Numbered from the stretch's first letter, positions 4,237-59,316 are shown. The stretch: 64,000 nucleotides of DNA from an uncultured Enterobacteriaceae bacterium (GCA_964509455.1 CAZDXS010000245.1:9392-73391), one strand, 5' to 3'. Numbers and translations are program-made. The notes: generated from the letters alone by a model not told the origin.

Positions 4237-4635
4237 ATGGTAAAAGAAGTCTCGCCGCAACAGGCCTGGCAAATATTGCAAGAGGAGCCGGGGGCCGTGT
4301 TGCTGGACGTGCGCTCCCGGATGGAGTTTGACTACGTGGGACACCCTGTCGGCGCCGTCAACATTCCCTTGCAAGACCCGCCGGGCGCGGACAATGACCC
4401 GGCGTTCGCGGACAAGGCGGCGGCGCAACTGGGCGCGGCCGCCAAGACGACGCCGGTGCTGGCGCTGTGCCGCAGCGGGCAACGCTCCATGGCCGCGGCG
4501 CAACTGCTGGAGCAGGCCGGGTTCCAGCGCGTGGTGAACATAGCCCAGGGTTTCGAGGGGGACCGGGACGAGCGCGGACAGCGCGGGCATCTGGGCGGCT
4601 GGCGCTTTCACGGCCTGCCTTGGGAGCAGACCTGA
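4237..4635 (+). CDS. rhodanese-like sulfurtransferase domain protein
   Basis: 132 aa. It has the AVLLDVRSRMEFDYVGHPVGAVNIP and LCRSGQRS active-site-loop pattern of single-domain rhodaneses. Confidence 0.85.
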   Translation: MVKEVSPQQAWQILQEEPGAVLLDVRSRMEFDYVGHPVGAVNIPLQDPPGADNDPAFADKAAAQLGAAAKTTPVLALCRSGQRSMAAAQLLEQAGFQRVVNIAQGFEGDRDERGQRGHLGGWRFHGLPWEQT

Positions 4636-4664
4636 GCGCCGGGCAACCCGCTCCGCTCATTCAA

Positions 4665-4849: not shown

Positions 4850-4916
4850 GTGCCTGGCAACCCGCGCAACCAAGGCAACCCGAGCGTCCGTTCAACCACA
4901 GCGCCTGGCAGCCCGC

Positions 4917-6347: not shown

Positions 6348-7115
6348 TCAGCGGCCGCCGCTCTCCGCCTCGGGGGCGTCCTCGCGGCCGCGAGCGGCGA
6401 TGCGTCCCAACACCAGTCCCAGCTCGAACAGCAACCACACGGGCAGGGCCAGCAACACCTGGGAGATGATGTCCGGCGGGGTCAGCAACATGCCCGCCGT
6501 GAAAGCGCCGACTATTATATAGGGCCGCTTGCGCGCCAGCGAGTCCACGGAGGAGACGCCCGTCCACACCAGCAGGATGATGGCAATGGGTACCTCGAAA
6601 GCAAGCCCGAAGGCAAAGAACATTTTGAGGATGAAGTTCAGGTAATGGCCGATGTCGGTCATCATGGCGACCCCGTCCGGCGCCACTGACGCCAGGAACC
6701 CGAACAGCAGGGGGAACACGGCAAAAAAGGCGAACGCATTGCCCAGGTAAAACAACACCACGCTGCTGGCGACCAGCGGCAACACCAGGCGCCGCTCATT
6801 CTCGTAGAGGCCCGGCGCCACGAACGCCCAGCCCTGGTACAACAGGTAGGGCATGCAGACCAGCACGGCAGCGCAGAAAGCCAGCTTGAAAGGCACCAGG
6901 AACGGCGCCGCCACCTCGGTGGCGATCATCCCCCCGCTTGCCGGCAGCTGCGCCAGCAGGGGGGCGGCGACCAGGGCGTAGATGTCGCCGGCGAACAGGC
7001 TGAGCCCCAGGAACACGACAAACACGCATGCCAAGCACCGCAACAGGCGCCCGCGCAACTCGGCCAGGTGGGCAATGAGGGGTTGCTCGGAATCAGCGGC
7101 GGGAGCGGTCGGCAT
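6348..7115 (-). CDS. tatC: twin-arginine translocase subunit TatC
   Basis: 255 aa polytopic membrane protein. The N-terminus QPLIAHLAELRGRLL is the TatC signature. Confidence 0.95.
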   Translation of the reverse strand: MPTAPAADSEQPLIAHLAELRGRLLRCLACVFVVFLGLSLFAGDIYALVAAPLLAQLPASGGMIATEVAAPFLVPFKLAFCAAVLVCMPYLLYQGWAFVAPGLYENERRLVLPLVASSVVLFYLGNAFAFFAVFPLLFGFLASVAPDGVAMMTDIGHYLNFILKMFFAFGLAFEVPIAIILLVWTGVSSVDSLARKRPYIIVGAFTAGMLLTPPDIISQVLLALPVWLLFELGLVLGRIAARGREDAPEAESGGR

Positions 7116-7119
7116 CAGG

Positions 7120-7500
7120 CGCCCTGCCCGTGGTTTGAGCGTGCCGCGGCGTCCTGCCCGTGGCTTGAGCGTGCAGAGGCGCCCCGGCCGGCCGCAGGAA
7201 ACGCCGCACCCCGGCGGCCGGGTTCCCAGAATGATTGACCGGCAGGTGCGGCGACCGGCCCGTGGTTTGAGTGCGCAGAGACGCCCTGCCCGTGGTTCGA
7301 ACGTGCGGCGGCACCCCGTCCGGCCGCAAGGAACGCACGGCGGCGGCCGGGTTCCCAGAAAGATTGACCGGCAAGCGCGGCGCCCTGCCCGTGGTTTGAG
7401 CGCACAGAAGCGCCGCGGCCGGCCGCGGGGGAACGCGCCCCCGCCAGCGACAACCGCCTGTTGCCGGGGCGAGCGGGGAAGACGCCTATCATGGGCGGGG
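7120..7500. repeat. ~129-bp tandem array (about 3 units) filling the tatB-tatC spacer
   Basis: ggcggccgggttcccagaatgattgaccggca at 7213 recurs at 7342 (offset 129). The sub-motif gccctgcccgtggtttgagcg occurs about 5 times. Confidence 0.85.
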
Positions 7501-7511
7501 GACGACCCGCC

Positions 7512-7778
7512 TCAGGACTTGCCGGAGCGAGCGTCATCATCCTTGTCGGGGGCGATGTCCATCAGCGTGTCCACGTCCTGGATTTTCTCGGAGAAGTCTT
7601 TCATCTCGTCCAGGCGCAACTGCTGCTCGAACTCGTAGCGGGTCTGCGCGATGACGCGGCGCACCCTCGCCGCCCAGCGGCCCGCGTCCCGCACCAGCCC
7701 CGGCAGTTTTTCCGGGCCCGCCGCCAGCAGGGCGACCACGGCAATGACCAGCAACTCCCAGAAGCCGATGTCGAACAC
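7512..7778 (-). CDS. tatB: twin-arginine translocase subunit TatB
   Basis: MFDIGFWELLVIAVVALLAAGPEKLP is the TatA/B-family N-terminus. The gene sits between tatA and tatC. Confidence 0.9.
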   Translation of the reverse strand: MFDIGFWELLVIAVVALLAAGPEKLPGLVRDAGRWAARVRRVIAQTRYEFEQQLRLDEMKDFSEKIQDVDTLMDIAPDKDDDARSGKS

Positions 7779-15374: not shown

Positions 15375-15490
15375 GGGGACAGGAGCGGGCTCATGGACGC
15401 AGGGTCACAGGCGCAAGAGCAGGGTCGGGGGTGCAAGAACGGGGTCATGCAAAGCAGTATAACAGGGCTTGCCGGGTTTTTAGCGGCGGC

Positions 15491-16002
15491 GGCCGCCGCG
15501 CACCGGGAAACCGCGGCCTACGCCAGGGGCTTTCCACGACAGCGGCCGCCGCGCACCAAGAAAGCGCCGGCAGGCGCCCCGCACCGGGGAAACGCCGACG
15601 GGCGCCAAGGGTGTTCCGCAACTGCGGCCGCCGCACACCGGGAAAACGCCGGCAGGCGCCGGGGCCTTTCCGCGACAGCGGCCGCCGCGCCCCAAGAAAG
15701 CACCGGCAAGCGCCAGGGGCTTTCCGCAATCGCGGCCGCCGCGCACCGGAAAAACGCCGGCAAGCGCCGGGGCCTTTCCGCGACAGCGGCCGCCGCGCAC
15801 CGGGAAACCGCGGCCTACGCCAGGGGCTTTCCACGACAGCGGCCGCCGCGCACCGGGAAAGCGCCGGCAAGCACCGGGGGCTTTCCACAACCGCGGCCGC
15901 TACGCACCGGGGAAGCGCCGGCAGGCGCCAAGGGCTTTCCACGACAGCGGCCCCCGCACCGGGAAAACGCCGGCCTACGCCAGGATTTTTTCCACGGCGG
16001 CA
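15491..16002. repeat. tandem array, 9 units of ~54 bp (one 82-bp variant), ending in the ptsP stop region
   Basis: The unit is ggccgccgcgcaccgggaaaNcgccggcaNgcgccNgggNctttccNcgacagc. Units 1 and 6 are identical and carry ctacgccagg, which copies the ptsP stop plus its last codons (real copy ctacgccaggattttttccacggcggc at 15975). Confidence 0.9.
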
Positions 16003-22203: not shown

Positions 22204-22278
22204 CGCGCCGGCCCCGGGCTTTCAACAAGGCGCTGGGGCGGTTTTTGGGGCAGGTTGCCCGCGGCCCGGTTGCCGTCG

Positions 22279-25200: not shown

Positions 25201-25638
25201 ATTGGACATTTCATACTCGTCCCTCTGCTTTTGCCTGACCTTATCCATAATCTTGCCGGGACAGCAGGCCTCCCACCAGCCGATCACCATTCCCAGGCCG
25301 CCCAGCGCCTTGACTTGCCCGTCAGGACGCTTGCCGGGCGACTGCTCCACCTCCTGAAAAAAACTGCACTTGTAGTGGGGAGCGAGCTCTATCATCAGTT
25401 GAGCAAATGCGTCCCGGCGGTCCACTTCCTTGGTCCTTCGGTCTTTCGTCAGCTCCAGCTGACGCTGGTAATAGGCCGCCAGGGCCGAGACAACAGTTTC
25501 GCGGTATTTACGGGTCTTGCCGCTGAGGCTGCCGCGCAAAGCAACCCGGAGCCTGGACTCCTCGTGATACCCGGCATTCTCGATTCTGGCAGCGACAGAA
25601 TCCAGGAGCCTGATAGTTTCTTTTTTTGTAGAACGCAT
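22279..25638 (-). CDS. large N6-adenine DNA methyltransferase-like protein, paralog A (PD-ExK-like N-terminus, gamma-class MTase, type ISP-like C-terminal specificity region)
   Basis: 1119 aa. Motif X GIVYTPQEVVNFMV, motif I ILDPATGTGTF and motif IV VIGNPPW are present. The C-terminus DIFYYAYAVLNDPEYATRFAGNLRVSLPRLPL...AGRALARLHTRFDE...VIHVSVETQKI resembles type ISP/IIG TRD-C regions. The N-terminus reads RPDG-x16-WWEAC. Confidence 0.85.
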   Translation of the reverse strand: MRSTKKETIRLLDSVAARIENAGYHEESRLRVALRGSLSGKTRKYRETVVSALAAYYQRQLELTKDRRTKEVDRRDAFAQLMIELAPHYKCSFFQEVEQSPGKRPDGQVKALGGLGMVIGWWEACCPGKIMDKVRQKQRDEYEMSNMLFEDSGTEVRLHQSPKGGSVGGGKDSPKPKTAEIGEPAGFVQLLEEFFTRAGQIDRKFKEAWATLSEDIPRIAANLNGIFLRKASESAVKTAAAEISQLMGGKGAVGESEVTEMLVQHVLTGEFLRSLYGQDMDRTNPIAKELDSLQNQLAGPGEWGNLTQKVQAYYSDLYDLAKSVEKHPDKAEQLLKDVYQQFYWAYAKKSGDKLGIVYTPQEVVNFMVRTSDSLLREHFGKGLESPQVPILDPATGTGTFVTAVMRHIAAKKGGSKKLQAKYLAAGQGKDGRGALWANEVSLLAYYVACVAVQRTLYNLTGGETDQQFPGLCYQDTLALPLTGEGEQVEMEGGGFSKENTKRVRKQRDTDITLVIGNPPWRASQKNAMEMNENASYPALDARLTDMYRGSGVQKPSSTDQYKRFLVWSLDRIREQGMVALITNRGFLDSVSDAPLRQYLREQCTALYILDLGGEGASDGNVFPNKVGCQVIFAIKKDSGGTDARVMYHCVLHGESAETKLRWLDDKDNTPGWTSLERDGGGPLCPTQADTGFDRLPMPAVSKEYKQKYEKGRQEVGEIPVFALYSMGSATRRDDWMWDLGRAALEIKVRRFVSIYEEERRRYHASRDELPPALQNTPENRKDLTRFGNRLIKEFFKPHIKWTTELALYAAGDDGGIAYDSQAIRTVLWRPFTRKQLYYRPRLIHRLYQLKKIFPLRIRGASDNLVIGFTSPGKKKPFDALLSDTVPDGEVLPSPQYIPLYVYDENGNKRSNITDLALERFRAHYKQQRITREDIFYYAYAVLNDPEYATRFAGNLRVSLPRLPLHPRFREWAEAGRALARLHTRFDECPEDRHCKVVGPKRWHAADPPEKICRVGVSKTGGKIIRIDTKTEIRNIPQAAWDYQLSGDPAMLWPLAEHQHEGRPKERKHHSDEVTELLRQCPYQWQDHRAALIRLLRQVIHVSVETQKIRSKMSGMNDNL

Positions 25639-25853
25639 AACTGGGCTGGCTGACGTAGAAAATCGCTAAGGGTTCACTGGCCGCAACGGCAGAAACGATG
25701 ATGTCTTTGGCGAGTGTATCACATCAGCCGCGACAACAACGGTGCGTGCCCGCGCCTGTTGGGGCAAAACCGGTTGCTTCATCCCTGGGAATCAATAAAG
25801 TCCGCTGGATCGGGGGTTTGGGCAGGTTGCCCGCGGCCCGGTTGTCGCCGCCG

Positions 25854-28800
25854 TTACAGGTTGTCATTCATGCCGGACATTTTTGAGCGGATTTTCTGCG
25901 TCTCCACCGAGACGTGGATGACCTGGCGAAGCAGCCGTATCAACGCGGCCCGATGGTCTTGCCACTGGTAGGGGCATTGCCGCAACAGTTCCGTCACCTC
26001 GGACGAGCGATGTTGCCGCGCTTTCGGGCGCCCCTCATGCTGGTGCTCCGCCAGCGGCCAGAGCATGGCGGGGCGACCCGCCAACTGGTAGTCCCAGGCC
26101 GCTTGCGGAATGTTCCGAATCTCCGTTTTCGTATCGATGCGAATGATTTTTCCGCCCGTCTTGCTGACGCCGACCCGGCAGATTTTCTCGGGCGGGTCGG
26201 CGGCATGCCACCGCTTTGGTCCCGCCACTTCGCAATGACGGTCCTCCGGACATTCATCGAAGCGGGTGTGCAACCGGGCCAGCGCTCTGCCCGCCTCCGC
26301 CCATTCCCGGAAACGGGGGTGCAAGGGCAACCGCGGCAGGGCAACGCGCAGGTCCCCGGCGAAGCGCGTTGCGTACTCCGGATCGTTCAGCACCGCATAC
26401 GCATAGTAGAAGACGTCCTCTTGGGTGATGCGCGGCCGCTGGTAGTGCGCGCGAAAGCGCTCCAAGGCGAGGTCCGTGATGTTCGAGCGCTTTTTGCCGT
26501 GCTCGTCATAGACGTAAAGAGGGATATATTGGGCGAAAGGCAGGAAATGATGGTCCGGCACCGCGTTGCTGAGCAATGCGCCAAACGACCTCTTTTTACC
26601 GGGGGACGTAAAACCAATGACCAGGTTGTCGGAACCCCCTTGCCTGTCGAACGGGAAGATGCTTCCCATCTGGTAGGGGCGGTGAAGCAAGACGGGCCGG
26701 TAATACAGTTGCTTGCGGGTGAACGGCCGCCACAGGGCGGTGCGAATCGCCCGGGAGTCGCAGGCAAGCGTCCCGTCCTCCCTTGTTGCGTACGGCGCCA
26801 GTTCGGTGGTCCACTTGATGCGCTGGTCGAAAAATTCTTTCATCAGCCGGTGGCCGAAGCGGGTCAGGCTTTTGCGATTTTCCGGCGTGTTTTGCAACGC
26901 CGGCGGCAACTCGTCATGGGAAGCATGGTATCGCCTGCGCTCCTCTTCATAAATGCTCACGAAGCGCCGCACCTTGATTTCCAGCGCGGCGCGGCCCAGG
27001 TCCCACATCCAGTCATCCCGGTTTGATTTGCTCCCCATGCTGTACGACGCAAACACGGGGACTTCTCCCGCCTCCTGCCGGCCCTGCTTGTATTCCTTGC
27101 TGACGGCGGGCATCGGCAACCTGTCAAAGCCCGTAGCGGCAGGGGTTGGACACAGGGGGCCGCCCCCGTCCTGTTCAAGAGACGTCCAGCCGGGGGTGTT
27201 TTTCCCGTTGTCCAACCACCTCAGCTTGGTCTCGGCGCTCTCTCCATGCAGGACGCGATGGTACATCGCCCGGGCGCCGGGTGCGCCGGAGTCTTTCTTG
27301 ATGGCGAAAATCACCTGGCAACCGGTCTTGTTGCCGGAGAACACGTTGCCGTCCGCAGACCCGTTCAACCCGTCGCCGCCCAGATCAAGAATATACAGGG
27401 CAGTGCACTGCTCGCGCAGGTATTGCCGCAACGGCGCATCGGAAACGGAGTCCAGGAAACCGCGGTTGGTGATCAGCGCGACCAGCCCCTGCTTCTGGAC
27501 CCGGTCCAGGGACCAAACAAGAAAACGCTTGTACTGGTCCGTGGAAGACGGCTTTTGCACCCCGCTGCCCTGGTACATGTCCGTCAACCGGGCGTCCAGG
27601 GCCGGATAGCTGGCGTTCTCATTCATCTCCATGGCATTCTTCTGGGAGGCGCGCCAGGGCGGATTCCCGATGACCAGAGTGATGTCGGTGTCGCGTTGCC
27701 GGCGCACCCGCTTGGTGTTCTCTTTTGAGAACCCGTTGCCTTCCAACTCAACCTGCTCCCCTTCCCCGGTCAGGGGCAACGCCAGGGTGTCCTGGTAACA
27801 CAGGCCGGGAAACTGCTGGTCCGTCTCGTACTCCCCGCCCTCCGTCAGGTTGTACAGGGTGCGCTGAACGGCCACGCAGGCGACGTAGTACGCCAGGAGC
27901 GACACCTCGTTGGCCCACAGGGCGCCGCGCCCGTCCTTGCCGTGCCCGGCCGCCAGGTACTTGGCCTGCAGTTTTTTGCTCCCGCCTCTTTTTGCGGCAA
28001 TATGCCGCATGACGGCCGTTACGAAAGTTCCCGTCCCCGCGGCCGGGTCCAGGATGGGAACCTGCGGCGATTCCAGCCCCTTGCCGAAATGCTCGCGCAA
28101 CAGCGAGTCCGAGGTGCGCACCATGAAGTTCACCACCTCCCGGGGGGTATAGACAATGCCCAGCCTGTCGCCGGACTTCCTGCCGTAAGCCCAGTAGAAC
28201 TGCTGATAGACGTCTTTCAGCAACTGCTCCGCCTGGTCCGGATAATCCTCGACGCTCCGCGCCAATCCTTGCAGGCCGGAGTAGTAGTCCCGCACTTTCC
28301 GGGTGAGGTTCCCCCACTCCCGCGGCCCCGCCAGCTGGTTCTGCAGGGCGTTCAACTCCCTGGCGATCGGGTTGGTGCGGTCGATGTCCTGGCCGTACAG
28401 GGAGCGGAGGAACTCCCCGGTCAGCACGTGCTGGACCAGCATGTCGGTCACTTCCTGTCCGCTCACGGCGCCCTCGCCGCCCATCAACCGGGAGATTTCC
28501 ACGGCGGCCGCCTGTACCGCGGCCGCCGCCTCTTGCTGTTGGAAGATGCTGTTCAGGCTTGCGGCGATTTCTGGTATTTCTTTTTCCAGCGCCGACCAGG
28601 CCTCCTTGAATTTCCTGTCGATTTGCCCGGCGCGGGTGAAGAAGCGATCCAGCAACCCGATGAACTGCGCCGGGTCGTCAATCCCGACGCGTTCTTGCTG
28701 CGGGGGCGCCGCGCCGTCCGCCTGGCACAGGCAGGCCTGCGTGCCGCAATCCTCGAACAGCATGTTGGACATTTCGTACTCGTCCGCCTGTTTTTGCCTG

Positions 28801-29222
28801 ATCTTGTCCGCAATCCTGCCGGGACGGCAGGCCTCCCACCAGCCGATGACCATTCCCAGGCCGCCCAGCGCCTTGACCTGTCCGTCCGGGCGTTTGCCGG
28901 GCGACTGCTCCTGCTCTGGAATGAACCCGCACTTGTAGAGGGGGGCGAGCGCTCTCATCAGGCCAACGAATGCGTCGCGGCGGTCCAACTCTCCCGTGAC
29001 GCGGCTCTTCGTCAGCTCCAACTGACGCTGGTAATAGGCCGCCAGGGCCGAGACGACGACCCCGCGATGGTTACGGGTCTTGCCGCTGAGTCTGCCGCGC
29101 AAGGCGTCCCCGAGCCTGGACTCCTCGTGATACCCGGCCGCCCTGATCCTGGCAGCGACAGAATCCAGGCGCTTGATGGTTTCCTGGTTCGCAGAACGCA
29201 TGGCTGGATAGGTTGACGTCAA
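25854..29222 (-). CDS. large N6-adenine DNA methyltransferase-like protein, paralog B
   Basis: 1122 aa, collinear with paralog A and roughly 80-90 percent identical by eye, with the same motifs (DPAAGTGTF, VIGNPPW). By alignment with A the start may be ATG 29201 (MRSANQETIKRLD). Confidence 0.85.
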   Translation of the reverse strand: MTSTYPAMRSANQETIKRLDSVAARIRAAGYHEESRLGDALRGRLSGKTRNHRGVVVSALAAYYQRQLELTKSRVTGELDRRDAFVGLMRALAPLYKCGFIPEQEQSPGKRPDGQVKALGGLGMVIGWWEACRPGRIADKIRQKQADEYEMSNMLFEDCGTQACLCQADGAAPPQQERVGIDDPAQFIGLLDRFFTRAGQIDRKFKEAWSALEKEIPEIAASLNSIFQQQEAAAAVQAAAVEISRLMGGEGAVSGQEVTDMLVQHVLTGEFLRSLYGQDIDRTNPIARELNALQNQLAGPREWGNLTRKVRDYYSGLQGLARSVEDYPDQAEQLLKDVYQQFYWAYGRKSGDRLGIVYTPREVVNFMVRTSDSLLREHFGKGLESPQVPILDPAAGTGTFVTAVMRHIAAKRGGSKKLQAKYLAAGHGKDGRGALWANEVSLLAYYVACVAVQRTLYNLTEGGEYETDQQFPGLCYQDTLALPLTGEGEQVELEGNGFSKENTKRVRRQRDTDITLVIGNPPWRASQKNAMEMNENASYPALDARLTDMYQGSGVQKPSSTDQYKRFLVWSLDRVQKQGLVALITNRGFLDSVSDAPLRQYLREQCTALYILDLGGDGLNGSADGNVFSGNKTGCQVIFAIKKDSGAPGARAMYHRVLHGESAETKLRWLDNGKNTPGWTSLEQDGGGPLCPTPAATGFDRLPMPAVSKEYKQGRQEAGEVPVFASYSMGSKSNRDDWMWDLGRAALEIKVRRFVSIYEEERRRYHASHDELPPALQNTPENRKSLTRFGHRLMKEFFDQRIKWTTELAPYATREDGTLACDSRAIRTALWRPFTRKQLYYRPVLLHRPYQMGSIFPFDRQGGSDNLVIGFTSPGKKRSFGALLSNAVPDHHFLPFAQYIPLYVYDEHGKKRSNITDLALERFRAHYQRPRITQEDVFYYAYAVLNDPEYATRFAGDLRVALPRLPLHPRFREWAEAGRALARLHTRFDECPEDRHCEVAGPKRWHAADPPEKICRVGVSKTGGKIIRIDTKTEIRNIPQAAWDYQLAGRPAMLWPLAEHQHEGRPKARQHRSSEVTELLRQCPYQWQDHRAALIRLLRQVIHVSVETQKIRSKMSGMNDNL

Positions 29223-29268
29223 AAACTTCTATGGGTTTACATTCCGTGACATTTTAGAACGACGGCGG

Positions 29269-32370: not shown

Positions 32371-33048
32371 ATGCGCGCGATGATCCTGGCGGCGGGGCGG
32401 GGCGAGAGAATGCGCCCGCTGACCGCAACGCTGCCCAAGCCCATGTTGGCGGCCGCCGGCAAGCCCCTGTTGCAATACCAGGTGGAGGCGCTGGCGCGGG
32501 CCGGTTTTGCCGAGCTGGTCATCAACCGGGCGCGGCTGGGCGAGAAAATAACCGCTTATTTCGGCGACGGCGCTGATTTTGGCGTGTCCATACGCTACTC
32601 CGACGAGGGCGACGAGCCGCTGGAGACCGGCGGCGGCGTCCGGCAGGCCCTGCCCCTGCTGGGCGCCGAGCCGTTCCTGGTGGTGAACGGCGACATCTGG
32701 ACCGATTTCCCCCTGGCCGCCCTGAAACAGGCGGCGCCGGCGGCGGCGCACCTGGTGCTGGCGCCCAACCCGCCCCACCATCCCCGGGGAGACTTCGCCC
32801 TGGAGGACGGGCGCGTGCTGGCTGCGGGCCGCCCCGCTTTCACGTTCAGCGGCATCGGCGTGTATCACCCCTCCCTGTTTGCCGACATTCCAGAGCGCAA
32901 CTTCCCTCTGGCGCGGGTCCTGCGGCCGGCCCTGGAACGGCGGCAGGTCACGGGCGAGCTGTATGACGGCCGCTGGTTCGACATCGGCACACCGGCGCGG
33001 CTGGCGGCGCTGGAGCAGTTGCTGGACGAGTGTGCGGCTCAGCGGTAG
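32371..33048 (+). CDS. murU: nucleotidyltransferase, MurU-like (N-acetylmuramate 1-phosphate uridylyltransferase family)
   Basis: MRAMILAAGRGERMRPLTATLPKPML is the NTP-transferase G-rich loop. The 225-aa size and sequence are like MurU. Confidence 0.8.
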   Translation: MRAMILAAGRGERMRPLTATLPKPMLAAAGKPLLQYQVEALARAGFAELVINRARLGEKITAYFGDGADFGVSIRYSDEGDEPLETGGGVRQALPLLGAEPFLVVNGDIWTDFPLAALKQAAPAAAHLVLAPNPPHHPRGDFALEDGRVLAAGRPAFTFSGIGVYHPSLFADIPERNFPLARVLRPALERRQVTGELYDGRWFDIGTPARLAALEQLLDECAAQR

Positions 33049-33215
33049 CGGGTGGGGTCGGGAATGCCGGCGGCGCTGGGCAGATCACGGGCGAGATGCG
33101 TGACGGCCGCTGGTTCGACTTAGGCGCGCCGGCGCGGCCGGCGGCGCCGGCGCGGTTGCTGGACGAGCGCGCGGCTCAACGGTAGCGGGTGGGGTCGGGA
33201 ATGCCGGCGGCGCTG
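32944..33215. repeat. 137-bp tandem duplication (2 units) of the convergent murU/queC 3' ends
   Basis: tagcgggtggggtcgggaatgccggcggcgctg occurs at 33046 and 33183. Unit 1 holds the functional murU stop. Unit 2 holds the functional queC stop. Confidence 0.9.
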
Positions 33216-34651: not shown

Positions 34652-35965
34652 TTAATTGACCGGCGCCATGTCGGGGAGCGTAACCGCCCTGATCTCCCTC
34701 AGACGTTCTTCCGCCAGGCGGGCAACCGTCGTGCCGGGGTGTTGCCGCGCCGCCTCTTCCAGCCGCCGGCCGGCTTGCTCCATCCGGCCCAGCTCGTAGA
34801 GACAGAACCCGGCTTTCAGTTGCGCCTGGGCGGCCTTGCGGCTGTCGGGGTGGTCCTGCAACAGCCGGGAGTATTCTTCCAGCGCCAGGTCAAACCGCCC
34901 GTTCACGTAATAGGCCTCGGCCAGCCAGAAGCGCGCGTCCGGCGCCTGTTCGGCGGTCCCATGACGCGCCAGGAACGCTCGCAAGGCCGGCACGGCTTGC
35001 TGGTAGCGGGCGCGCTTTAGCAGGTCGAAAGCGCGGCGATACTCGGCGCGGGCCTGCTCCGGGTCTGACGGGGCTGGGGGCGCGGGCCGGCCCACGCCTA
35101 AGGGCGGCCAAGCCGCTTCCTGCGGGAATGTGTCCGCGTCCGGCGGCGACAATGCCTGCTCCTGCGGGAGTGCACCCGCGCCCGGCGGCGGCAATGCCTG
35201 CTCCTGCGGGAATGCGGCCGCGCCCGACCCCGCCAACGCTTGCTCCTGCGGGAATGCACCCGTGCCCGGCCCCGACAACGCCTGCTCCTGCGGGAATGCG
35301 GCCGTGTCCGACCCCGATAACGCTTGCTCCTGCGGGAGTGTACCCGCACCCGACCCCGACAATGCCTGCTCCTGCGGGAGTGCGCCCGTGTCCGGCGGCG
35401 GCAACGCCTGCTCCTGCGGGAATGCGCCCGTGTCCGGCGGCGGCAACGCCTCTTCCCGCGAGAAGGCGCCCGTGTCCAGCGGCGGCAACGCCTCTTCCCG
35501 CGAGAAGGCGCCCGTGCCCGGCGGCGGCAACGCCTCCTCCCGCGAGAATGCGCCCGCGCCCAGCGGTTCAATGATGGGATACAGCGGGTCCAGCATCTCG
35601 TCCTCCGCGCCCGGCGCCGGGTCAAAAGCGGCGACCCGGCGCGGCGGCGCCGCCTGCAAACGGCGCAAGCGCTCATCGAGATCCGCGTACAGGTCGCGCT
35701 GTTGCTTCTTGATCTGCTCTAACAAGTGACTCTGCGTCTCCAGCTCGCCGCGCAGGCGCTCCATTTCCTGTTGCATGGCTTCCAGCTGTTGCAACATTCG
35801 CACCAGCCCCTGGTTGCTCAGCAGTCGCTCGATGCGCTCCAAGCGCGCCGCCGTGTCCGCCTCGGGAGCCGCGGCTTCCTGGGCGCGGGCGCCGTCAAAA
35901 GCCGCGACCGCCGGCAGGACCAGCGCCGGCCACAGGGCAAATCGCAACAGGCGCAAGCGCATCAT
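34652..35965 (-). CDS. cpoB: cell division coordinator CpoB (YbgF) with expanded repeat linker
   Basis: It has a signal peptide, an N-terminal coiled coil (LERIERLLSNQGLVRMLQQLEAMQQEMERLRGELE) and a C-terminal TPR (YRRAFDLLKRARYQQAV...). It follows pal. Confidence 0.9.
   Translation of the reverse strand: MMRLRLLRFALWPALVLPAVAAFDGARAQEAAAPEADTAARLERIERLLSNQGLVRMLQQLEAMQQEMERLRGELETQSHLLEQIKKQQRDLYADLDERLRRLQAAPPRRVAAFDPAPGAEDEMLDPLYPIIEPLGAGAFSREEALPPPGTGAFSREEALPPLDTGAFSREEALPPPDTGAFPQEQALPPPDTGALPQEQALSGSGAGTLPQEQALSGSDTAAFPQEQALSGPGTGAFPQEQALAGSGAAAFPQEQALPPPGAGALPQEQALSPPDADTFPQEAAWPPLGVGRPAPPAPSDPEQARAEYRRAFDLLKRARYQQAVPALRAFLARHGTAEQAPDARFWLAEAYYVNGRFDLALEEYSRLLQDHPDSRKAAQAQLKAGFCLYELGRMEQAGRRLEEAARQHPGTTVARLAEERLREIRAVTLPDMAPVN
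35105..35565 (-). repeat. in-frame 42-bp (14-aa) tandem repeat, about 10.5 units, inside cpoB
   Basis: DNA unit is ctcctgcgggaatgcNcccgNNcccgNccccgNcaaNgcNtg. Peptide units are FSREEALPPPGTGA and FPQEQALSGSGAGA. Confidence 0.9.
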
Positions 35966-36256
35966 CAGTACGCGAACTCCGCCTTTCTGCTCAGCCGCTG
36001 GGCTTCCTGGGCGCAGGCGCCGTCACAAGCCGCGGCCGCCGGCAGGACCGGCGCCGGCCACAGGGCAAGTCGCAACAGACGCAAGCGCACCATCAGTACG
36101 CGAACTCCGCCTTTCTGCTCAGCCGCCGGGCTTCCTGGGCGCGGACGCCGTCACAAGCCGCGGCCGCCGGCAGGACCGCCGCCGGCCACAGGGCAAATCG
36201 CAACAGGCGCAAGCGAATCATCAGTACGCGAACTCCACCCTTCTGTTCAACCGCCA
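35873..36256. repeat. 128-bp tandem triplication of the pal-stop/cpoB-start junction
   Basis: ATG copies are at 35965 (real cpoB), 36093 and 36221. The boundary motif GGC(T/C)TCCTGG occurs at 35873, 36001, 36129 and 36257. Confidence 0.92.
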
Positions 36257-36754
36257 GGCCTCCTGGTCATGGCCGGCAACGGCGGGACGCTCCTCGCCGT
36301 AGCTCACGGTGATGAGTTGCGCCGGGTCAACGCCCAACACCACCAGTTGCTGTTTCACCGCACGCGCCCGTTGTTCGCCAAGGGCCAGGTTGTATTCCCG
36401 GGAACCGCGCTCATCGGCGTGCCCTTCCAGGGTCGCCTCGCGGCCCGGGTTGGCTTGCAAAAAACGGGCGTGGGCATGGATGAGCGCGTTGGAGTCCAGC
36501 GGCACGGCGCTGCTGTCGTAGTCAAAATAGATGACGCGCACCGGCGGCATGCTGGCCGGGTCGCCCAGCGGCGACATACCGCCGGCGCCGTCGTCTCCCA
36601 TTCCGAAAGCGCGGGCGCTTTCGTCCTCCCCTGCTGGTTGTTCCGCGCCGGCAGGGGCGCCGCCGCGCTCTTCGACGGGCACTTTCCTGGCGGATTCGGT
36701 GCAGGCGGTGAGCATCGCGCTCAGCAGGAGCGCCGATAAGATTTTACAGGTCAT
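36221..36754 (-). CDS. pal: peptidoglycan-associated lipoprotein Pal
   Basis: It has a lipobox (LSAMLTAC) and an OmpA-like domain (VIYFDYDSSAV...LEGHADERGSREYNLALGEQRA). Confidence 0.94.
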   Translation of the reverse strand: MTCKILSALLLSAMLTACTESARKVPVEERGGAPAGAEQPAGEDESARAFGMGDDGAGGMSPLGDPASMPPVRVIYFDYDSSAVPLDSNALIHAHARFLQANPGREATLEGHADERGSREYNLALGEQRARAVKQQLVVLGVDPAQLITVSYGEERPAVAGHDQEAWRLNRRVEFAY

Positions 36755-41235: not shown

Positions 41236-41554
41236 GTCGTCAGGGGGCGTAGCATGGGAACCGTCGGCGCAATTGGATCATTCTACAATCCAGGGCGCGG
41301 CGATGCAAGCCGCTGTGCCGGGCCGCTGGCATGCAACGCCTGGGGCGGGGACGAGCCCGGATCGGAGCGAAAGCGGACAACGGCGGGCGGCGGGGGCCTT
41401 ATCCCCGGCGCCGTGGTTGGCGCGGCGACGGCGGGCAGGAGAGACCGCGGGCCCGGCAAGCGCCGCACATCGCCTCGCGCAACCGCCCCGGCGCCCGGGC
41501 GGACGAATAACCGGCGCGGGAATAACGGACAGGCGTTGCGGGGCAGGGTATCAG

Positions 41555-44500
41555 CTAGGCGGTAACCAGGGTTACGTCCGGGTCCACGATGAAGCTGCCG
41601 GCAACGCCGGCGTACTGCTCGTAGTCCTCGCCGGCCACAGCCACGTCATCTCCCCGGGTGAAATCGTCCAGGTCGAAACGCAGAGTGTCATCGCTGTCGC
41701 CGTCGATGCGAAGCTGATAGTTGCCGTCGCCGTCCGCCAGCACCGCCAGGGCCTCAGTAGATAGGGTCAGGTCCGTGTTGCCGGCGCCTGCGCCCGCCAG
41801 GTCGATTTGCGGCACGCCCGCCAGCAGGGTCGCATCAACGGGAAGAAGCGCATTGGCTTGACCTGTCGACACCGCGGTCTGCAACTCGGACGCGACAGCA
41901 AGATCGGCAGAGTACGCAAAACCGTCCAGGGCGCCGGGGCCGGTTCGGCTCCAGCCGGACGCCAACGGCGCTCCATTCCCACCATGGAAAGTCACCGTGT
42001 AAGCGGGCCCATCGCCAAGGAGCGTTATCGTGTGTACGACCAGGTTGCCGGCGGCGCCCCACTGCCCGTGGAACTCCAGCCGGTCCAGCATGCCGTCGTT
42101 GTCGCTGTCGCGGCCCACCCAGTCCGGGCTGCCGTTGGCGTCGTGGTCATAGTGGTGTTCGTCGATGGCGCCGTCCCCGTCCTCATCAACACTGGAGCGT
42201 TCCACGATGCCGTCATCGCCTTCATCAAAGTCGGTGCGCACCACGGCGCCGGCCGCGTTGCGCGTGTAGGTCTCGGAGCGAATGGCAACATCGTCTCCCA
42301 GATCGTCCAACATGGAATCGAACGGAGTGCGCGCGCCTGCCTCGTCAGCGGCGCCGGTTTCCTTGCCGGCAACGCCCCGCGCACCAGGAGCGCCCGCGGC
42401 AGAGCGTCCCAGGCTGTTGCCGCTCCCACCCTCGATTCCAGGCTCCTCGGCAGGGGCGTCGCCCTCGCCGCCCACCGCCATCACTTTCTTGATCAGGTTC
42501 CCGTGGGCGTCGTAGGAGTAGGTCTCGATGCGATCCAACGTGCCGTCGCCCTCGTCATCGAACGCGGCCCGGTCGATGACCCCGTCCACGTTGTCATCGT
42601 AGTACGTGCCAATAACGGCGCCGGCGGTGTTCCACGCATAGACTTCCACGCGGTCCACGGTGTTGTCCGCATCGTCGTCAAAATCCGCGCGGATGATGCG
42701 GCCGTTGACGTCCCGCACGTAGGACTCAATACGGTCCACGGTGTTGTTCGCATCGTCGTCAAACCCGGTGCGGAGGCTGTTGCCCTGGTCGTCCCGCTCG
42801 TAGTAGGTCTCGATGCGGTCCAGGACCCCGTCCCCGTTCGGGTCAAAATGGGTGCGATCCACCCGGCCGTTGCCGTTGTCGTCGTAGTCGGTGCGAATGA
42901 TGATATTGGCGCCGTTCCGCGCATACGCCACGGTGCGCTCCGGGGCGCCGTCGGCATTGGCATCGAAGACGGTGCGGTCAATATAGCCGTTCGCATCGTC
43001 ATCGACGTCTGTGCGAATAACCTGACCCTGGCCGTTCCGCACATAGACTTCAACGCGGTCCGTCGTCCCGTCCGCGTCATCGTCAAAATCAGTGCGCAAA
43101 ATATTGCCGTTGGGATACCGCAGGTAGCTTTCCGTACGATCCACCGCGCCGTCGGCGTCGTCATCGAAGTCAGTGCGCTGAATACGGCCATTGGGGAACC
43201 GCGCGTAGGCCTCGGTGCGCTCCACAGTGCCGTCCGCATTGGCGTCAAAGTGGGCGCGATCCGCCCGGTCATCCAAATCGTCATCGAAGTCGGTCTGGAT
43301 GATGTCGCCGCCGGCGTTCCGCACGTAGGCCTCGGCGCGCTCCACTGTACCGTCCTCGTCCGCATCAACCCTGGCGCGGTCGGCATTGCCATCGCCGTCG
43401 TCATCGTACTCGATGCGCTCGGCCGTGCCGTTTTCGTTGGCGTCAAACTCCACCCGGTCCACCGTGCCGTCATCGTCCGCATCCACCTCGGTGCGCTCCG
43501 CCGCGCCGTCGGCGTCCGCGTCAAACTCGCGCCGGTCGACGATGCCGTCGGCGTCGCTGTCAACATCGGTCTGGATGACGTCCCCGGCGCTGTTTCGCAC
43601 ATACGTCTCGATGCGATCCAGCGTGCTGTCCGCGTTGTCGTCAAAGGCGGTGCGGGCAATGCGACCGGCGCCGTCCAGCGTGTAAGACTCGATGCGCTCG
43701 GCCGTGCCGTCGGCGTCATCATCAAACTCGGTACGGATGATGCGCCCGTTGCCGTCCCGCCCATAGGTCTCGATGCGCTCGGCCGTGCCGTCCGCGTCAT
43801 TGTCAAACTCGGTGCGGGTGATGCGCCCATGGCCGTCCCGCCCGTAGGTCTCGATGCGGTCCGCCGTGCCGTCATCGTTCGCATCAAACTCCACCCGGTC
43901 TGCCGTGCAGTCATCGTCCGCATCCACTTCGGTGCGCTCCGCCGTACCGTCCGCGTCCGCGTCAAACTCGCGGCGGTTGACGATACCGTCGGCATCGCTG
44001 TCAACACCGGTCTCAATGGCGTCGCCGTCGCTGTTCCGCACATACGTCTCGATGCGGTCCGCCGTGCCGTCCGCATCGTCATCGAAAGCAGTGCGGGTGA
44101 TGCGGCCGTCGACGCCCCGCGTGTGGGACTCGATGCGGTCCACCGTACCGTCGGCGTCCGGGTCAAAATGGTCGCGGTCAATATGGCCGTCCGCATCGTC
44201 ATCGAAGCGGGTGCGAATGATTTCCTTGGCGCCGTTCCGCAGGTAGTTTTCAGCGCGCTCAAACGTGCCGTCGCCGTCCGAGTCGAAGAATATCCAGTCA
44301 ATATGACCATCTTGATCCGTATCGACCTCGATGTCGGCAGATTGCGTGGCGACCCCGGACTGTTGCGGCGGCGCGGCATTCCCGGGGTCTTGCTCCTGCG
44401 GCTCGATGCGGTCCACCGTGCCGTCCGCGTCGTCATCGTACTCGGTGCGCGTCACCTGCCCGGCGGTATTGCGCGTATAGAACTCGATGCGATCAACGGC

Positions 44501-45346
44501 GCCGTCGGCATTGTCATCGAAGTCGGTGCGCTCCACCTGCCCGGCGGTATTGCGCGTATGATGCTCGATGCGCTCGCTGATCCCGTCATCGTTGTCATCG
44601 AACACCACCCTGACCAGGCGACCCTGCCCATCGTAAGCGTATATCTCCAGCCCCTCCGCAACACCGTCCGCATCGCCGTCAACCGCCGCCCGGGACGGCA
44701 ACCCGGCCGCATTGAAAAAGTTGTAGCGCAGGATCCTATCCGCCGTTCCATCGGCGTCGCTGTCCGTGGAGAGACGGACTACGCGCCCTTGGGCATCGTA
44801 GCCGTACTGTTCGATTCGATCCGCGGCGAACGCGGTCCCGTCGTAATCGTCATCGAACTGCACTTCAATCCGTTGCCCCACGTCCGCCTGGGAAATAGCG
44901 CCGGCATTGGCCTGCGCCTGGGCGCCATAGACATAGCGCTCCACACGGTCTACTGTGCCGTCCGCATTGTCGTCAAAGTCGGTGCGGACGATGCGGCTGT
45001 CGGCATCCTGCGTGTGTACCTCGGGGGGATTGACGGCATCGCTACCAGCATCGCCGGAACCTCCGGAATCATCAGAGCTTCCGGTGTCGCCGGAACTTCC
45101 CGTCTCATCGGGAACAGCGGGAGGTGCGTCAAAAAACCCGGGGGACAGCGTAGAAAGCAAGTCCAAGCTCGAGTAATAGCGATAGATCACATCTTCGTAT
45201 GTCACCTCCGAGGGAAAGATCTCGGGAAACAGCCAAAAAGCATCGGGCGTATAAACAGCGGGATCATAATGATCGTAAAAACGGGACGCCAGCCCAGCGC
45301 TTCCGTCCGGGATCAAGAAATCTCTTGTGTTCATTTCAGTCGTCAT
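41555..45346 (-). CDS. giant secreted-type repeat protein (~41 D-x-D-x-D-G calcium-loop/YD-like repeats; T1SS-like C-terminus)
   Basis: ORF 41555..45361 has a GTG start. ATG 45346 gives MTTEMNTRDFL. The ~28-30-aa unit DDDADGTVDRIETYxRxxxGxIxRTxF repeats throughout. The C-terminus is acidic and Gly-rich and ends DPDVTLVTA. Confidence 0.8.
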   Translation of the reverse strand: MTTEMNTRDFLIPDGSAGLASRFYDHYDPAVYTPDAFWLFPEIFPSEVTYEDVIYRYYSSLDLLSTLSPGFFDAPPAVPDETGSSGDTGSSDDSGGSGDAGSDAVNPPEVHTQDADSRIVRTDFDDNADGTVDRVERYVYGAQAQANAGAISQADVGQRIEVQFDDDYDGTAFAADRIEQYGYDAQGRVVRLSTDSDADGTADRILRYNFFNAAGLPSRAAVDGDADGVAEGLEIYAYDGQGRLVRVVFDDNDDGISERIEHHTRNTAGQVERTDFDDNADGAVDRIEFYTRNTAGQVTRTEYDDDADGTVDRIEPQEQDPGNAAPPQQSGVATQSADIEVDTDQDGHIDWIFFDSDGDGTFERAENYLRNGAKEIIRTRFDDDADGHIDRDHFDPDADGTVDRIESHTRGVDGRITRTAFDDDADGTADRIETYVRNSDGDAIETGVDSDADGIVNRREFDADADGTAERTEVDADDDCTADRVEFDANDDGTADRIETYGRDGHGRITRTEFDNDADGTAERIETYGRDGNGRIIRTEFDDDADGTAERIESYTLDGAGRIARTAFDDNADSTLDRIETYVRNSAGDVIQTDVDSDADGIVDRREFDADADGAAERTEVDADDDGTVDRVEFDANENGTAERIEYDDDGDGNADRARVDADEDGTVERAEAYVRNAGGDIIQTDFDDDLDDRADRAHFDANADGTVERTEAYARFPNGRIQRTDFDDDADGAVDRTESYLRYPNGNILRTDFDDDADGTTDRVEVYVRNGQGQVIRTDVDDDANGYIDRTVFDANADGAPERTVAYARNGANIIIRTDYDDNGNGRVDRTHFDPNGDGVLDRIETYYERDDQGNSLRTGFDDDANNTVDRIESYVRDVNGRIIRADFDDDADNTVDRVEVYAWNTAGAVIGTYYDDNVDGVIDRAAFDDEGDGTLDRIETYSYDAHGNLIKKVMAVGGEGDAPAEEPGIEGGSGNSLGRSAAGAPGARGVAGKETGAADEAGARTPFDSMLDDLGDDVAIRSETYTRNAAGAVVRTDFDEGDDGIVERSSVDEDGDGAIDEHHYDHDANGSPDWVGRDSDNDGMLDRLEFHGQWGAAGNLVVHTITLLGDGPAYTVTFHGGNGAPLASGWSRTGPGALDGFAYSADLAVASELQTAVSTGQANALLPVDATLLAGVPQIDLAGAGAGNTDLTLSTEALAVLADGDGNYQLRIDGDSDDTLRFDLDDFTRGDDVAVAGEDYEQYAGVAGSFIVDPDVTLVTA

Positions 45347-45606
45347 AAGTACCTCAGCCACGGCTCAATCAGTACGCCGGCCAGGATGTGTGACACTCGC
45401 ATTATGGCAAAAGTTCAAACAATTGTCAAGCGTGCGCGGGTTCATTACGCATTGAAATCCGGGAGTTGCTCAAGCAACGCTCGGGCCTAAGGACTCTTTT
45501 GTGTTCGTTTCAGTCGTCATAAGTACCTCCACTACAGCTCAATTAGCACGCCAGCCAAGACGTGTGACACCCGCATTATGGCAAAAGTTCAAACGGTCGT
45601 CAAGGA
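45322..45606. repeat. ~110-bp direct repeat at 174-bp offset covering the start codon and upstream region of the giant gene
   Basis: ttcagtcgtcataagtacctc occurs at 45335 and 45509. cattatggcaaaagttcaaac occurs at ~45400 and ~45574. Confidence 0.88.
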
Positions 45607-45813
45607 ATATGCACCGGCTCGCAACATACAACGTTTGGGGAGGGCGGGCAAGGCCTTGCATGGGTTCATATCATATTGGAATCCGGTAGTTAATCAAGTA
45701 GTGCCTGAGGCCGGGGACTTCAATCCCCGGCATCTGGGCGGGAGAGCTGGGTGGAGGGCGCACCAGGCAGGCAGGCGCGGGTAGGCAGCCGCGGCCGTGG
45801 GCAGACGCCACGG

Positions 45814-46419
45814 TCAGGCGACCGCCGCTTTCAGGGCGGCGCGGATCAAGTCCTCGCTGCTCATGCCCTCCCCCGCCGCACCGCGCACCAGGCGGCCGGC
45901 TTCCCTGGGGTTGTAGCCCAGGGCCACCAGGGCGGCGATGGCTTCGTTGACCGGCGCCGCTGCGCTCGTTGCGGGGGCGGCGCCCTTCCCGCCGGCGGCA
46001 GGCTCTGCCGCTGGGCGGTCTTTCAGGCGGTCGCTCATCTCCACGAGCAGGCGCTCCGCCATCTTCTTGCCGACGCCCGGCAGGCGGGTGAGACGCGCCG
46101 CGTTGCCGGTTTCTATGCATTGCACGAACTCGTCGGCGCCGATGCCGGACAGTATCGCCAGCGCTGTCTTGGCGCCTACGCCGCTGACCTTGATCAGGGC
46201 GCGAAACACGTAGCGCTCGTCCCCGGAGGCGAAACCGTACAGCAAGTGGGCGTCGTCCCGCACCACCAGGTGCGTCAACAGCTCAACCTCCTCGCCGGCG
46301 GGCGGCAGGACGTAAAACGTGTTCATGGACGCTTCCAGTTCGTACCCCACGCCTTGCACGTCCAGGGTCAGCGTCGGCGGTTGGCGGGCGATGATCCTGC
46401 CGCGCAGAAACCCGATCAT
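45814..46419 (-). CDS. ruvA: Holliday junction DNA helicase subunit RuvA
   Basis: 201 aa from MIGFLRGRIIARQPPTLTLDVQGVGYELEASMNTFY. The HhH motifs are LIKVSGVGAKTALAILS and LPGVGKKMAERL. Confidence 0.95.
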   Translation of the reverse strand: MIGFLRGRIIARQPPTLTLDVQGVGYELEASMNTFYVLPPAGEEVELLTHLVVRDDAHLLYGFASGDERYVFRALIKVSGVGAKTALAILSGIGADEFVQCIETGNAARLTRLPGVGKKMAERLLVEMSDRLKDRPAAEPAAGGKGAAPATSAAAPVNEAIAALVALGYNPREAGRLVRGAAGEGMSSEDLIRAALKAAVA

Positions 46420-46888
46420 GGCCGCAGCGCCGGGGTCTGCGGCTGGACGAGCGCCAGGGGGCGCCGCGAATGACCGCAGCGCAGGGCAACGTCCAGGGCC
46501 GGCGGCGGTTGGCGGGTGATGATCCTGCCGCGCAGAAACCCGATCATGGCCGCAACGCCGAGGTCTGCGGCCGGCCGGGCGCCGGGGGGCGCCGCGAATG
46601 ACCGCAACGCAGGGCAACGTCCAAGGCCGGCGTCGGCGGTTGGCGGGCGATGAGCCTGCCGCGCAGAAATCCGATCATGGTCGCGGCGCCGGGGTCTGCG
46701 GCTGGACGGGCGCCAGGGGGCGCCGCGAATGACCGCAATGCAGGGCAACGTCCAGGGTCAGCGTCGGCGGTTGGCGGGCGATGATCCTGCCGCGCAGGAA
46801 TCCGATCATGGTCGCCGCGCCAAGGTCTGCGGCTGGACGGGCGCCAGGGGGCGCCGCGAATGGCCGTGACACAGGGCAACGGCCAGGG
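46358..46888. repeat. tandem array, 4 units (128/131/131/131 bp), of the ruvC-stop/ruvA-start junction
   Basis: ATG copies are at 46419 (real ruvA), 46547, 46678 and 46809. Boundary motifs are ACGTCCAGGG (ruvA side, 46358) and ACGGCCAGGG (ruvC side, 46879). Confidence 0.92.
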
Positions 46889-47378
46889 CGTCGGCGGCAT
46901 CCTCCTGGGGCGGCTCCGCCAGGCACAGCAGGACCTTGACCATGTACTGCACCTGGGTTTTCTGCGCGTGTCCCTTGCCCACGGCAGCCTGCTTGACCTG
47001 GTTCGCCGTGTACTCAAAAACCGGCAGGCGCAGTTCGGCGCAGGCGGTGACGGCGGCGCCGCGGGCTTGCCCCAGCTTCAGCGCGGAATCGGCATTGCGG
47101 TACATGAATATTTTTTCGACGGCGGCCTCGGCCGGGCGGAATTCGCGTATTACTCCGGCAATTTCATGGAAAATTCGCCCTAGGCGCTCCGCCAGGGCTT
47201 CTCCTTGCACCGCGACGTGACCGTGGGTCACGTGCACGGCGTGATTGCCGGCAATGTCAATGACGCCGTACCCCGTTTGGCGAAAGCCCGGGTCAATCCC
47301 CAGGATGCGCACCACAGGCGCGGCGCCGGCCCGAGGCCGCGCCGGCGGCCGCTCAGTCCGGGCGGCGCCGGGCGTCAT
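46806..47378 (-). CDS. ruvC: crossover junction endodeoxyribonuclease RuvC
   Basis: RILGIDPGFRQTGYGVIDIAG...KIFMYRNADSALKLGQARG...DAADALAVALCHGH matches RuvC. The true start may be downstream of ATG 47378. Confidence 0.92.
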   Translation of the reverse strand: MTPGAARTERPPARPRAGAAPVVRILGIDPGFRQTGYGVIDIAGNHAVHVTHGHVAVQGEALAERLGRIFHEIAGVIREFRPAEAAVEKIFMYRNADSALKLGQARGAAVTACAELRLPVFEYTANQVKQAAVGKGHAQKTQVQYMVKVLLCLAEPPQEDAADALAVALCHGHSRRPLAPVQPQTLARRP

Positions 47379-49375: not shown

Positions 49376-49800
49376 CGCAACGTTGCGGGACAACCGCTCG
49401 CAGGAAGCCGCCCAACGTTTGCCCCGCCGCGGGGTCCGGCATAGTCGCGACAGGCGACGCGGAGCGGACGCTCGCAGGCGGCCGCGGCAACATCCGTCCC
49501 GCCGCGGGGCCCGACCTGGTCGCGACAGGCGACGCGGAGCGGACACCCGCAGGCGGCTACGGCAACATCCGTCCCGCCGCGGGGCCCGGCACGGTCGCGA
49601 CAAGCGACGCGGAGCGGACATCCGCAGGCGGCCGCAACTCCGTTTGCCCCGCCGCGGGGCCCGGCATCGTTACGGCGGGCGCCGTGGTCAGCGGGCAGGA
49701 GGCGGTCTGGGTCCTTGGGCAAAGCGATCACGTCCCGAATCCCCGCGGCGCCGGCCAGGATCATGGCGATGCGATCCAGGTCGAAAACAATGCCGGGGCG
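49376..49800. repeat. 75-bp tandem array (about 4 units) plus a ~125-bp pseudo-copy of an internal aspS 3' segment
   Basis: gcgacaggcgacgcggagcgg occurs at 49447, 49522 and 49597. gatcacgtcccgaatccccgcggcgccggccaggatcatg at 49726 copies aspS 49920 (offset 194). Confidence 0.88.
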
Positions 49801-49802
49801 GG

Positions 49803-59310: not shown

Positions 59311-59316
59311 GCGGCG

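Follow-up and report, generated by a model that had tools for sequence, protein, structure and literature searches.

Short repeated units that lie between co-transcribed genes have been described in Mycobacterium, where mycobacterial interspersed repetitive units (MIRUs) and MIRU-variable number tandem repeats (MIRU-VNTRs), for example at senX3-regX3, measure tens to about 100 bp (PMC12548453, PMC2734929). The short open reading frame (ORF) of such a unit is start/stop-coupled to the neighbouring gene, which is thought to allow persistence with little downstream effect. MIRUs seem to be tolerated because this ORF couples at a spacing of −4 to the gene that it precedes (PMC12548453). Spacings of −4 and −1 are the most enriched and the most efficient for coupling, which is 3- to 10-fold lower at larger spacing (Brown and Wade review, PMC12548453). 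For MIRU-VNTRs, an influence on differential translation in polycistronic operons has also been suggested (PMC2734929). Here we describe an array in the tol-pal operon of an uncultured Enterobacteriaceae bacterium (GCA_964509455.1 CAZDXS010000245.1:9392-73391), in which the junction of pal and cpoB is present three times and two chimeric 42-codon ORFs lie between the two genes. The analysis covered this whole stretch of 64 kb (the window); coordinates are counted from its first letter, and genes lie on the minus strand unless a plus is given.

We consider it likely that the array arose by microhomology-mediated tandem duplication and was tolerated at a gene boundary, with the chimeric ORFs as a probable translational relay and their peptides as by-products of a genome-wide habit. 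The array, together with a second one at ruvC/ruvA, resembles MIRUs in unit size, in its place between co-transcribed genes and in the coupled ORF. MIRUs, however, are dispersed over about 41 loci and apparently mobile, whereas here each array is built from its own flanking gene ends, the ORFs combine parts of both real proteins as chimeras, and different arrays have no sequence similarity to each other. A literature search for junction duplications with coupling returned only this MIRU analogy. Joints at imperfect direct repeats of 7-10 nucleotides (nt), the head-to-tail arrangement and a copy number that has grown to three or four are as in microhomology-mediated (RecA-independent, slippage-type) duplication followed by unequal crossing-over. 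In contrast to the usual large and unstable amplifications, these duplications are short (128-238 bp) and lie at gene boundaries; with about ten in 64 kb they are unusually frequent, and a divergence of 6-12% marks them as old. Like a minisatellite, the pal/cpoB array consists of head-to-tail copies of constant period, its unit comes from the flanks with the joint at a short direct repeat, and the closest relative has a single copy. As in termination-reinitiation coupling at −1 (TGATG) or −4 (NTGA), the native overlap is kept at every junction of both arrays; unlike in an ordinary coupled pair, coupling would have to traverse two or three non-functional relay ORFs. The order tolA-like gene, tolB, pal and cpoB, the terminal position of cpoB (ybgF) and a CpoB with coiled-coil and TPR domains are those of the known tol-pal operon (PMC7391070), from which the locus departs by the two extra ORFs and by a 14-residue linker repeat, present 11 times, in CpoB.

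A triplication of the pal/cpoB junction with a 128-bp unit had been proposed in a sequence-only reading of the window. Tandem Repeats Finder (TRF) confirmed it, with 3.1 copies, 91% matches, 0% indels and a score of 670 at 35868-36266. Both the ORF list and our own translation gave the order pal, 42-codon ORF, 42-codon ORF, cpoB, and the proposed 42-residue peptides and their coordinates were matched exactly. The features of the array are the following.

36221..36754, minus strand: pal, 177 amino acids, intact and keeping the original tail copy (ORF list).
36222..36256, minus strand: original 35-nt pal tail (WRLNRRVEFAY-stop), copied into every extra unit.
36093..36221, minus strand: chimeric unit 1, 42 codons, peptide MIRLRLLRFALWPAAVLPAAAACDGVRAQEARRLSRKAEFAY; its start overlaps the pal stop and its stop overlaps the unit 2 start.
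35965..36093, minus strand: chimeric unit 2, 42 codons, peptide MVRLRLLRLALWPAPVLPAAAACDGACAQEAQRLSRKAEFAY; its stop overlaps the cpoB start.
34652..35965, minus strand: cpoB (ybgF), 437 amino acids, intact (ORF list).
36257..36266, minus strand: microhomology CCAGGAGGCC in the QEA codons of pal; it forms the left edge of the repeat (alignment).
35873..35882, minus strand: microhomology CCAGGAAGCC in cpoB, right edge of the repeated segment.
35963..35980, minus strand: invariant 18-nt core GGAGTTCGCGTACTGATG before cpoB, with a Shine-Dalgarno (SD)-like GGAG, an 11-nt spacer and the stop/start overlap.

Each extra unit consists of 93 nt of the cpoB head (signal peptide through AQEA) followed by the 35 nt of the pal tail; the original copy of the head is nt 1-93 at 35873-35965. 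TGATG, in which a stop and the next start share one base, occurs at all three junctions (36219-36223, 36091-36095 and 35963-35967), so that the description of the extra copies as chimeras of the CpoB signal peptide and the Pal C-terminus in a TGATG chain holds. The proposed duplication joint was likewise found on inspection of the sequence: the microhomology CCAGGA(G/A)GCC between pal and cpoB spans 10 nt with one mismatch and encodes QEA in both genes, and CCAGGAAGCC recurs at the joints of unit 1 (36129-36138) and unit 2 (36001-36010). Identical copies of GGAGTTCGCGTACTGATG are located at 36091-36108 and 36219-36236; the chance that a given 18-nt block has no variable columns is 0.075. Neither a promoter nor a terminator was found inside the array, and its RNA fold was unremarkable (z-score of 0.17).

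The flanking genes are those expected of this operon. Pal matches the Pfam OmpA domain (E=7e-18), is 86% identical to the Pal of the closest relative and carries a lipobox at Cys18 (PROSITE-style pattern, which served as a control). CpoB matches TolA_bind_tri (E=6e-23) plus TPR. The surrounding minus-strand genes are a TonB_2-domain (TolA-like) gene, tolB, pal, cpoB, queE and queC, where Pfam assignments of Pal, CpoB and QueC were made from the window and those of the TolA-like protein and TolB from an identical Logan contig. Within cpoB itself, 42 bp are repeated in frame 11 times (35103-35566), which places units of 14 residues, GAFPQEQALPPPDT for example, between coiled-coil and TPR domain and brings CpoB to 437 amino acids. 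The contig of the relative ends at the start of this repeat, and the relative probably has the repeat too.

The following course of events would account for the array. A 128-bp segment, reaching from the QEA codons of pal across the stop/start to the QEA codons of cpoB, would have been duplicated in tandem, in the first round through recombination, slipped or illegitimate, at the imperfect 10-nt CCAGGA(G/A)GCC. The single chimera would then have drifted and been duplicated again, most simply by unequal exchange, after which both copies drifted. Such an event leaves a complete pal at the upstream edge and a complete cpoB at the downstream edge, and the array probably persisted because a duplication that spans the boundary leaves both genes complete at its outer edges. 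The unit length of 2 mod 3 puts the frame of the cpoB head in register with the pal stop, so that each extra unit forms a closed 42-codon ORF with a native GGAG and TGATG. Ribosomes that end pal would probably be handed along this chain of ORFs until they arrive at the cpoB start, still in its native surroundings. The peptides would be by-products, and the event one case of the short (75-400 bp) gene-end duplications found genome-wide in this lineage.

The closest twin of the pal/cpoB array lies at ruvC/ruvA in the same window, in flanking genes with Pfam matches to RuvC and RuvA_N.

46358-46889, minus strand: ruvC/ruvA array, 131 bp x 4.1, 89% identity.
46416..46809, minus strand: three chimeric ORFs (RuvA head plus RuvC tail; 44, 44 and 43 amino acids) between ruvC and ruvA.
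46809..46675, 46678..46544 and 46547..46416, minus strand: the individual ruv chimeric ORFs.

This array has ATGA overlaps throughout, and CCCTGG(A/C)CGT, another microhomology of 10 nt that includes one mismatch, holds its joint. An in-frame 3-nt deletion in the ruv array is the sole indel across the two arrays.

A comparison of the junction in relatives, which the sequence-only reading had suggested, was carried out by a protein search followed by contig look-up. Among the GTDB genomes and the Joint Genome Institute (JGI) metagenomes no close relative was found, the best Pal identity being 49-51%. The closest relative that we found (contigs L162/L164) is 92-94% identical at the nucleotide level over 8.9 kb, with a synonymous divergence (dS) of 0.15-0.29; it has a single pal-TGATG-cpoB junction and a single ruvC-GTGA-ruvA junction. 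A further 151 pal loci, taken from GTDB genomes and metagenomes, included none with a tandem array across the pal stop and nine with the TGATG overlap. The junction of the relative thus indicates that the TGATG overlap is ancestral, and the single copy there together with the 151 loci indicates that the triplication is specific to the present lineage, as far as these comparisons of sequence reach.

Compared with the parental sequence, unit 1 has 11 differences and unit 2 has 13. The two units have seven derived states in common and differ from each other at eight sites, which argues for two successive rounds of duplication. The pal tail of 35 nt accounts for four of the seven common derived states, namely W>R, N>S, R>K and V>A. 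Overall, the pal/cpoB chimeras have diverged 8.6-10% from their parents and the ruv chimeras 8-12%, which set against the lineage's share of dS suggests that the arrays are old.

We then counted substitution events in the chimeras against the reconstructed parents. The pal/cpoB chimeras have 15 events with a ratio of nonsynonymous to synonymous changes (N:S) of 14:1, and the ruvC/ruvA chimeras have 23 events with 16:7. Pooled, the two arrays give 30:8, where about 30% synonymous changes are expected under neutrality; the real genes tolB, pal, tolA and ruvC have an omega of 0.19-0.29. The chimeric peptides are under no purifying selection. The 38 changes comprise 31 transitions of all four kinds and seven transversions. 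AT-to-GC changes occur per site at 3.25 times the rate of GC-to-AT changes, and the changes are concentrated at the second codon positions, which are richer in AT; the 14:1 skew follows from this bias. Positive selection on the chimeras, as the 14:1 ratio might suggest, was accordingly rejected as an effect of composition and mutation bias that is absent in the ruv chimeras. In two other frames the share of synonymous changes seems higher (18 and 17 of the 38), but this excess again follows from changes at the AT-richer second codon positions, and antisense or alternative-frame coding was therefore rejected. Mutagenesis of the type caused by diversity-generating retroelements was rejected too, since changes are not confined to the adenines of one copy. 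The GC content of the chimeric units has risen, from 0.68 in the parents to 0.70-0.71 at pal/cpoB (35966-36221) and from 0.72 to 0.73-0.75 at ruv (46420-46809). This drift hints at GC-biased fixation or mutation in the genome, and the drifting copies offer a direct readout of GC-biased substitution in a genome of 68% GC.

That both chimeric ORFs stayed open despite the substitutions had been regarded as notable, and it had been suggested to ask whether their stop-free status exceeds chance. Substitutions that destroy a start or stop or create a stop make up 7.5% of those possible at pal/cpoB and 5.5% at ruv. The probability that the ORFs survive the observed events is thus about 0.31 and 0.27, respectively (product 0.085), and open chimeras are unremarkable in themselves.

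Several alternatives concern what the array and its products are. The window evidently comes from a metagenome-assembled contig and all three units are present in only one assembly, so that strain variants of a single junction might have been strung together during assembly. Strain variation, however, cannot create the chimeric joints, and no more than about 22 nt separate the linking variants. In addition, the copies have no indels and transition-biased substitutions, and the same pattern is seen at many loci. A Logan short-read contig (L081, SRR16090826) is identical over tolB-pal and continues directly after pal into the unit-1-specific variant ATGATTCGC (ATGATT), before it stops 36 nt into unit 1. 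The heads of unit 1 and of cpoB (unit 3) have different bases at nt 6 but are identical at nt 7-42; an assembly graph of 31-mers would therefore be expected to branch near the end of this contig if a second copy were present, and the contig does end where such a copy would be expected to break the graph. As the joints and the close linking variants are incompatible with strain mixing, we find an artefact hardly credible. Only slightly more room is left for the idea that the chimeras are functional small envelope peptides, either exported by the CpoB signal peptide or lipid-modified as 20-residue peptides that end in the Pal C-terminus. Their N-terminus is signal-peptide-like in a simple rule scan, keeping the basic n-region, the hydrophobic h-region and small residues at −3 and −1 (VRA or ACA at 26-28 compared with ARA in CpoB). 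Through a common F23C change both chimeras match a lipobox with Cys23, which neither CpoB nor the CpoB of the relative does (PROSITE-style pattern only). The deficit of synonymous changes (14:1) has a P of 0.02-0.05. Against this, the 14:1 ratio is explained by AT-to-GC bias at second codon positions, the ruv chimeras are exactly neutral and five of the 11 tail residues have changed. The chimeras have no Pfam match, and a search of 5.8 billion proteins gave no match other than these two ORFs, which are called genes of the 82,753-bp NCBI contig. Exact look-ups of the two 42-residue ORFs, CpoB and RuvC in a contig index gave no match. The 11 Pal residues of the tail are presumably the last strand of a folded OmpA-like domain and not a known motif. 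Because of this neutral evolution, the lack of relatives and a tail that would merely be the last OmpA-like strand, we rate a functional peptide as very improbable. The suggestion that each unit yields a small exported peptide thus finds no support, given the absence of purifying selection (14:1; ruv 16:7) and database matches to the ORFs themselves alone.

The sequence-only reading had also proposed that translational coupling from pal to cpoB is relayed through the chimeras. GGAG lies 11 nt before the ATG at every pal/cpoB junction. The unit lengths of 128 and 131 are both 2 mod 3, as is needed to end a chimera at the stop of the upstream gene (chance 1/9). The other two frames of the pal tail would meet a stop 27 nt early (GGC GGT TGA) or read through into the cpoB frame, which would yield a CpoB with a second signal peptide in front. 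All five chimeras (two at pal/cpoB and three at ruv) keep their start, frame and overlapping stop, while the frame-broken duplications in the window, at a receptor/oxidoreductase pair and a rhodanese gene, are both at junctions where stop and start do not overlap. It is likely that versions which keep the coupling chain are favoured by a filter when an array arises, and perhaps by maintenance thereafter. The relay proposal is weakly favoured by the in-frame unit lengths, the five intact chimeras, the sole 3-nt indel, the invariant 18-nt core and the −1 and −4 overlaps, the spacings most favourable for coupling, but the survival of the ORFs alone is not improbable (P of about 0.31 and 0.27); as passive ribosome relays to cpoB the chimeras are plausible.

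It could instead be that no relay exists, that the duplication is neutral and its ORFs are open by geometry and luck, and that cpoB is translated independently from its own GGAG-ATG. The survival probabilities, the neutral evolution of the peptides, the GGAG 11 nt before every ATG and the tolerated frame-broken copies in the receptor/oxidoreductase and rhodanese duplications all fit this. We nevertheless regard it as rather unlikely, as both overlap-coupled arrays are in frame and free of indels save one 3-nt deletion, the two frame-broken cases lack the overlap at their junctions, and 11 nt is a long spacing for an SD sequence. A further possibility is a copy-number-variable attenuator, in which each reinitiation step lowers the translation of cpoB relative to pal and unequal exchange provides heritable tuning. 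Identical stretches of 36-37 nt in tandem units could support the recombination, the arrays reached three and four copies, and the same has been proposed for MIRU-VNTR loci in operons. The copies are, however, 6-10% diverged, so that the number of copies seen now is long-standing, not one that changes quickly, and similar duplications are found at convergent gene ends, where such tuning is impossible; we give the attenuator a slim chance.

The preferred reading, a tolerated microhomology-mediated duplication with a probable relay, has several points weighing against it. The copy number of three comes from one assembly, supplemented by one contig that reaches only nt 36 of unit 1. The divergence of the chimeras is at least, or about, the lineage's share of the synonymous divergence (about 0.08-0.14); the arrays may thus date to about the split from the relative, may predate it and have collapsed in the relative, or may evolve faster than dS. 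The signals of frame maintenance are each weak and not fully independent, and with two arrays only the in-frame joints could be luck. Finally, cpoB could initiate alone from the GGAG 11 nt upstream, which would make a relay irrelevant.

In total, TRF and self-BLAST gave about ten short local tandem duplications in the window. Besides the two arrays above, these are the following.

32942-33215: convergent overlapping 3' ends of a nucleotidyltransferase gene and queC, 137 bp x 2, 89%.
60260-60749: 3' end of a TonB-dependent receptor gene, spacer and 5' end of a luciferase-like oxidoreductase gene, 238 bp x 2, 93%.
4451-4865: 3' part of a rhodanese-domain gene (4237..4635, plus strand), 216 bp x 2, 91%.
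7118-7414: tatB/tatC array, 132 bp x 2.2, 82%, with 30-bp sub-repeats; tatB ends at 7512 and tatC starts at 7115.
15483-15984: co-directional intergenic array between a ptsI-like gene and mgtE, 54/161-bp units.
58599-59315: intergenic duplication between oxidoreductase and short-chain dehydrogenase (SDR) genes, 404-bp offset, 93%.
49395-49989: downstream of aspS, 75-bp units, accompanied by the C-terminal codons of aspS in a decayed copy.
45315-45604: upstream of a giant repeat protein, array with a 174-bp offset.

The last four of these are long-period arrays in co-directional intergenic regions. At the convergent pair (nucleotidyltransferase 32371..33048, plus strand; queC ending at 33176, minus strand), either gene has retained one end intact together with a decaying copy of the tail of the other. 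The chimeric ORF at the receptor/oxidoreductase junction (start 60568) is not in frame and ends after 36 codons, and the second copy of the rhodanese duplication carries a frameshift. Self-BLAST of the window revealed no similarity between different arrays, which indicates independent local events and not a mobile family; a dispersed repeat family was ruled out on the same ground. Since the same type of duplication is found elsewhere in the 64 kb, its cause is general to the genome and unrelated to pal/cpoB, a point that the sequence-only reading had missed. The recurrence at other gene boundaries points to a general mutational habit, not a device specific to pal/cpoB.

A more far-reaching idea, which we put forward tentatively and hold to be more doubtful than the duplication itself, is that an unusually active process makes gene-boundary duplications of 75-400 bp (often about 130 bp) genome-wide, and that at overlapping gene pairs only those in frame survive, forming chains of coupled chimeric micro-ORFs. 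If true, operon minisatellites of the MIRU type would have an endogenous way to arise, and new small proteins would have a nursery, as with the lipobox-like Cys gained by the pal/cpoB chimeras. The pal/cpoB array itself is best seen as a mutational by-product, not as a new system. Taken with the ruvC/ruvA array, it would still offer a clean natural example of a coupled operon junction that absorbs inserted DNA; such an insert would be tolerated when a closed ORF preserves the native overlap of stop and start, as has been proposed for the mycobacterial MIRUs. The larger question is why this lineage gathers so many gene-boundary duplications and whether the frame-preserving ones are selectively kept. 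For annotation, orphan ORFs of 42-44 amino acids are to be expected in this lineage and should not be read as genes.

Some further observations concern repeats elsewhere in the window. At tatB/tatC, a repeat-made ORF of 141 codons (7540..7115) overlaps the tatC start via TGATG; TatB has only 88 amino acids, which may reflect a disrupted C-terminus. Between ruvA and ruvB lies a 4.3-kb segment (41452-45791) that is absent in the relative and encodes a protein of 1268 amino acids made of 81-bp (27-residue) Asp/Gly-rich repeats. Two adjacent 3.4-kb segments (22231-25677 and 25803-29240) are 85% identical and represent tandem paralogues, with one minus-strand ORF of about 1120 codons in each, and the GC content falls to 58-62% nearby.

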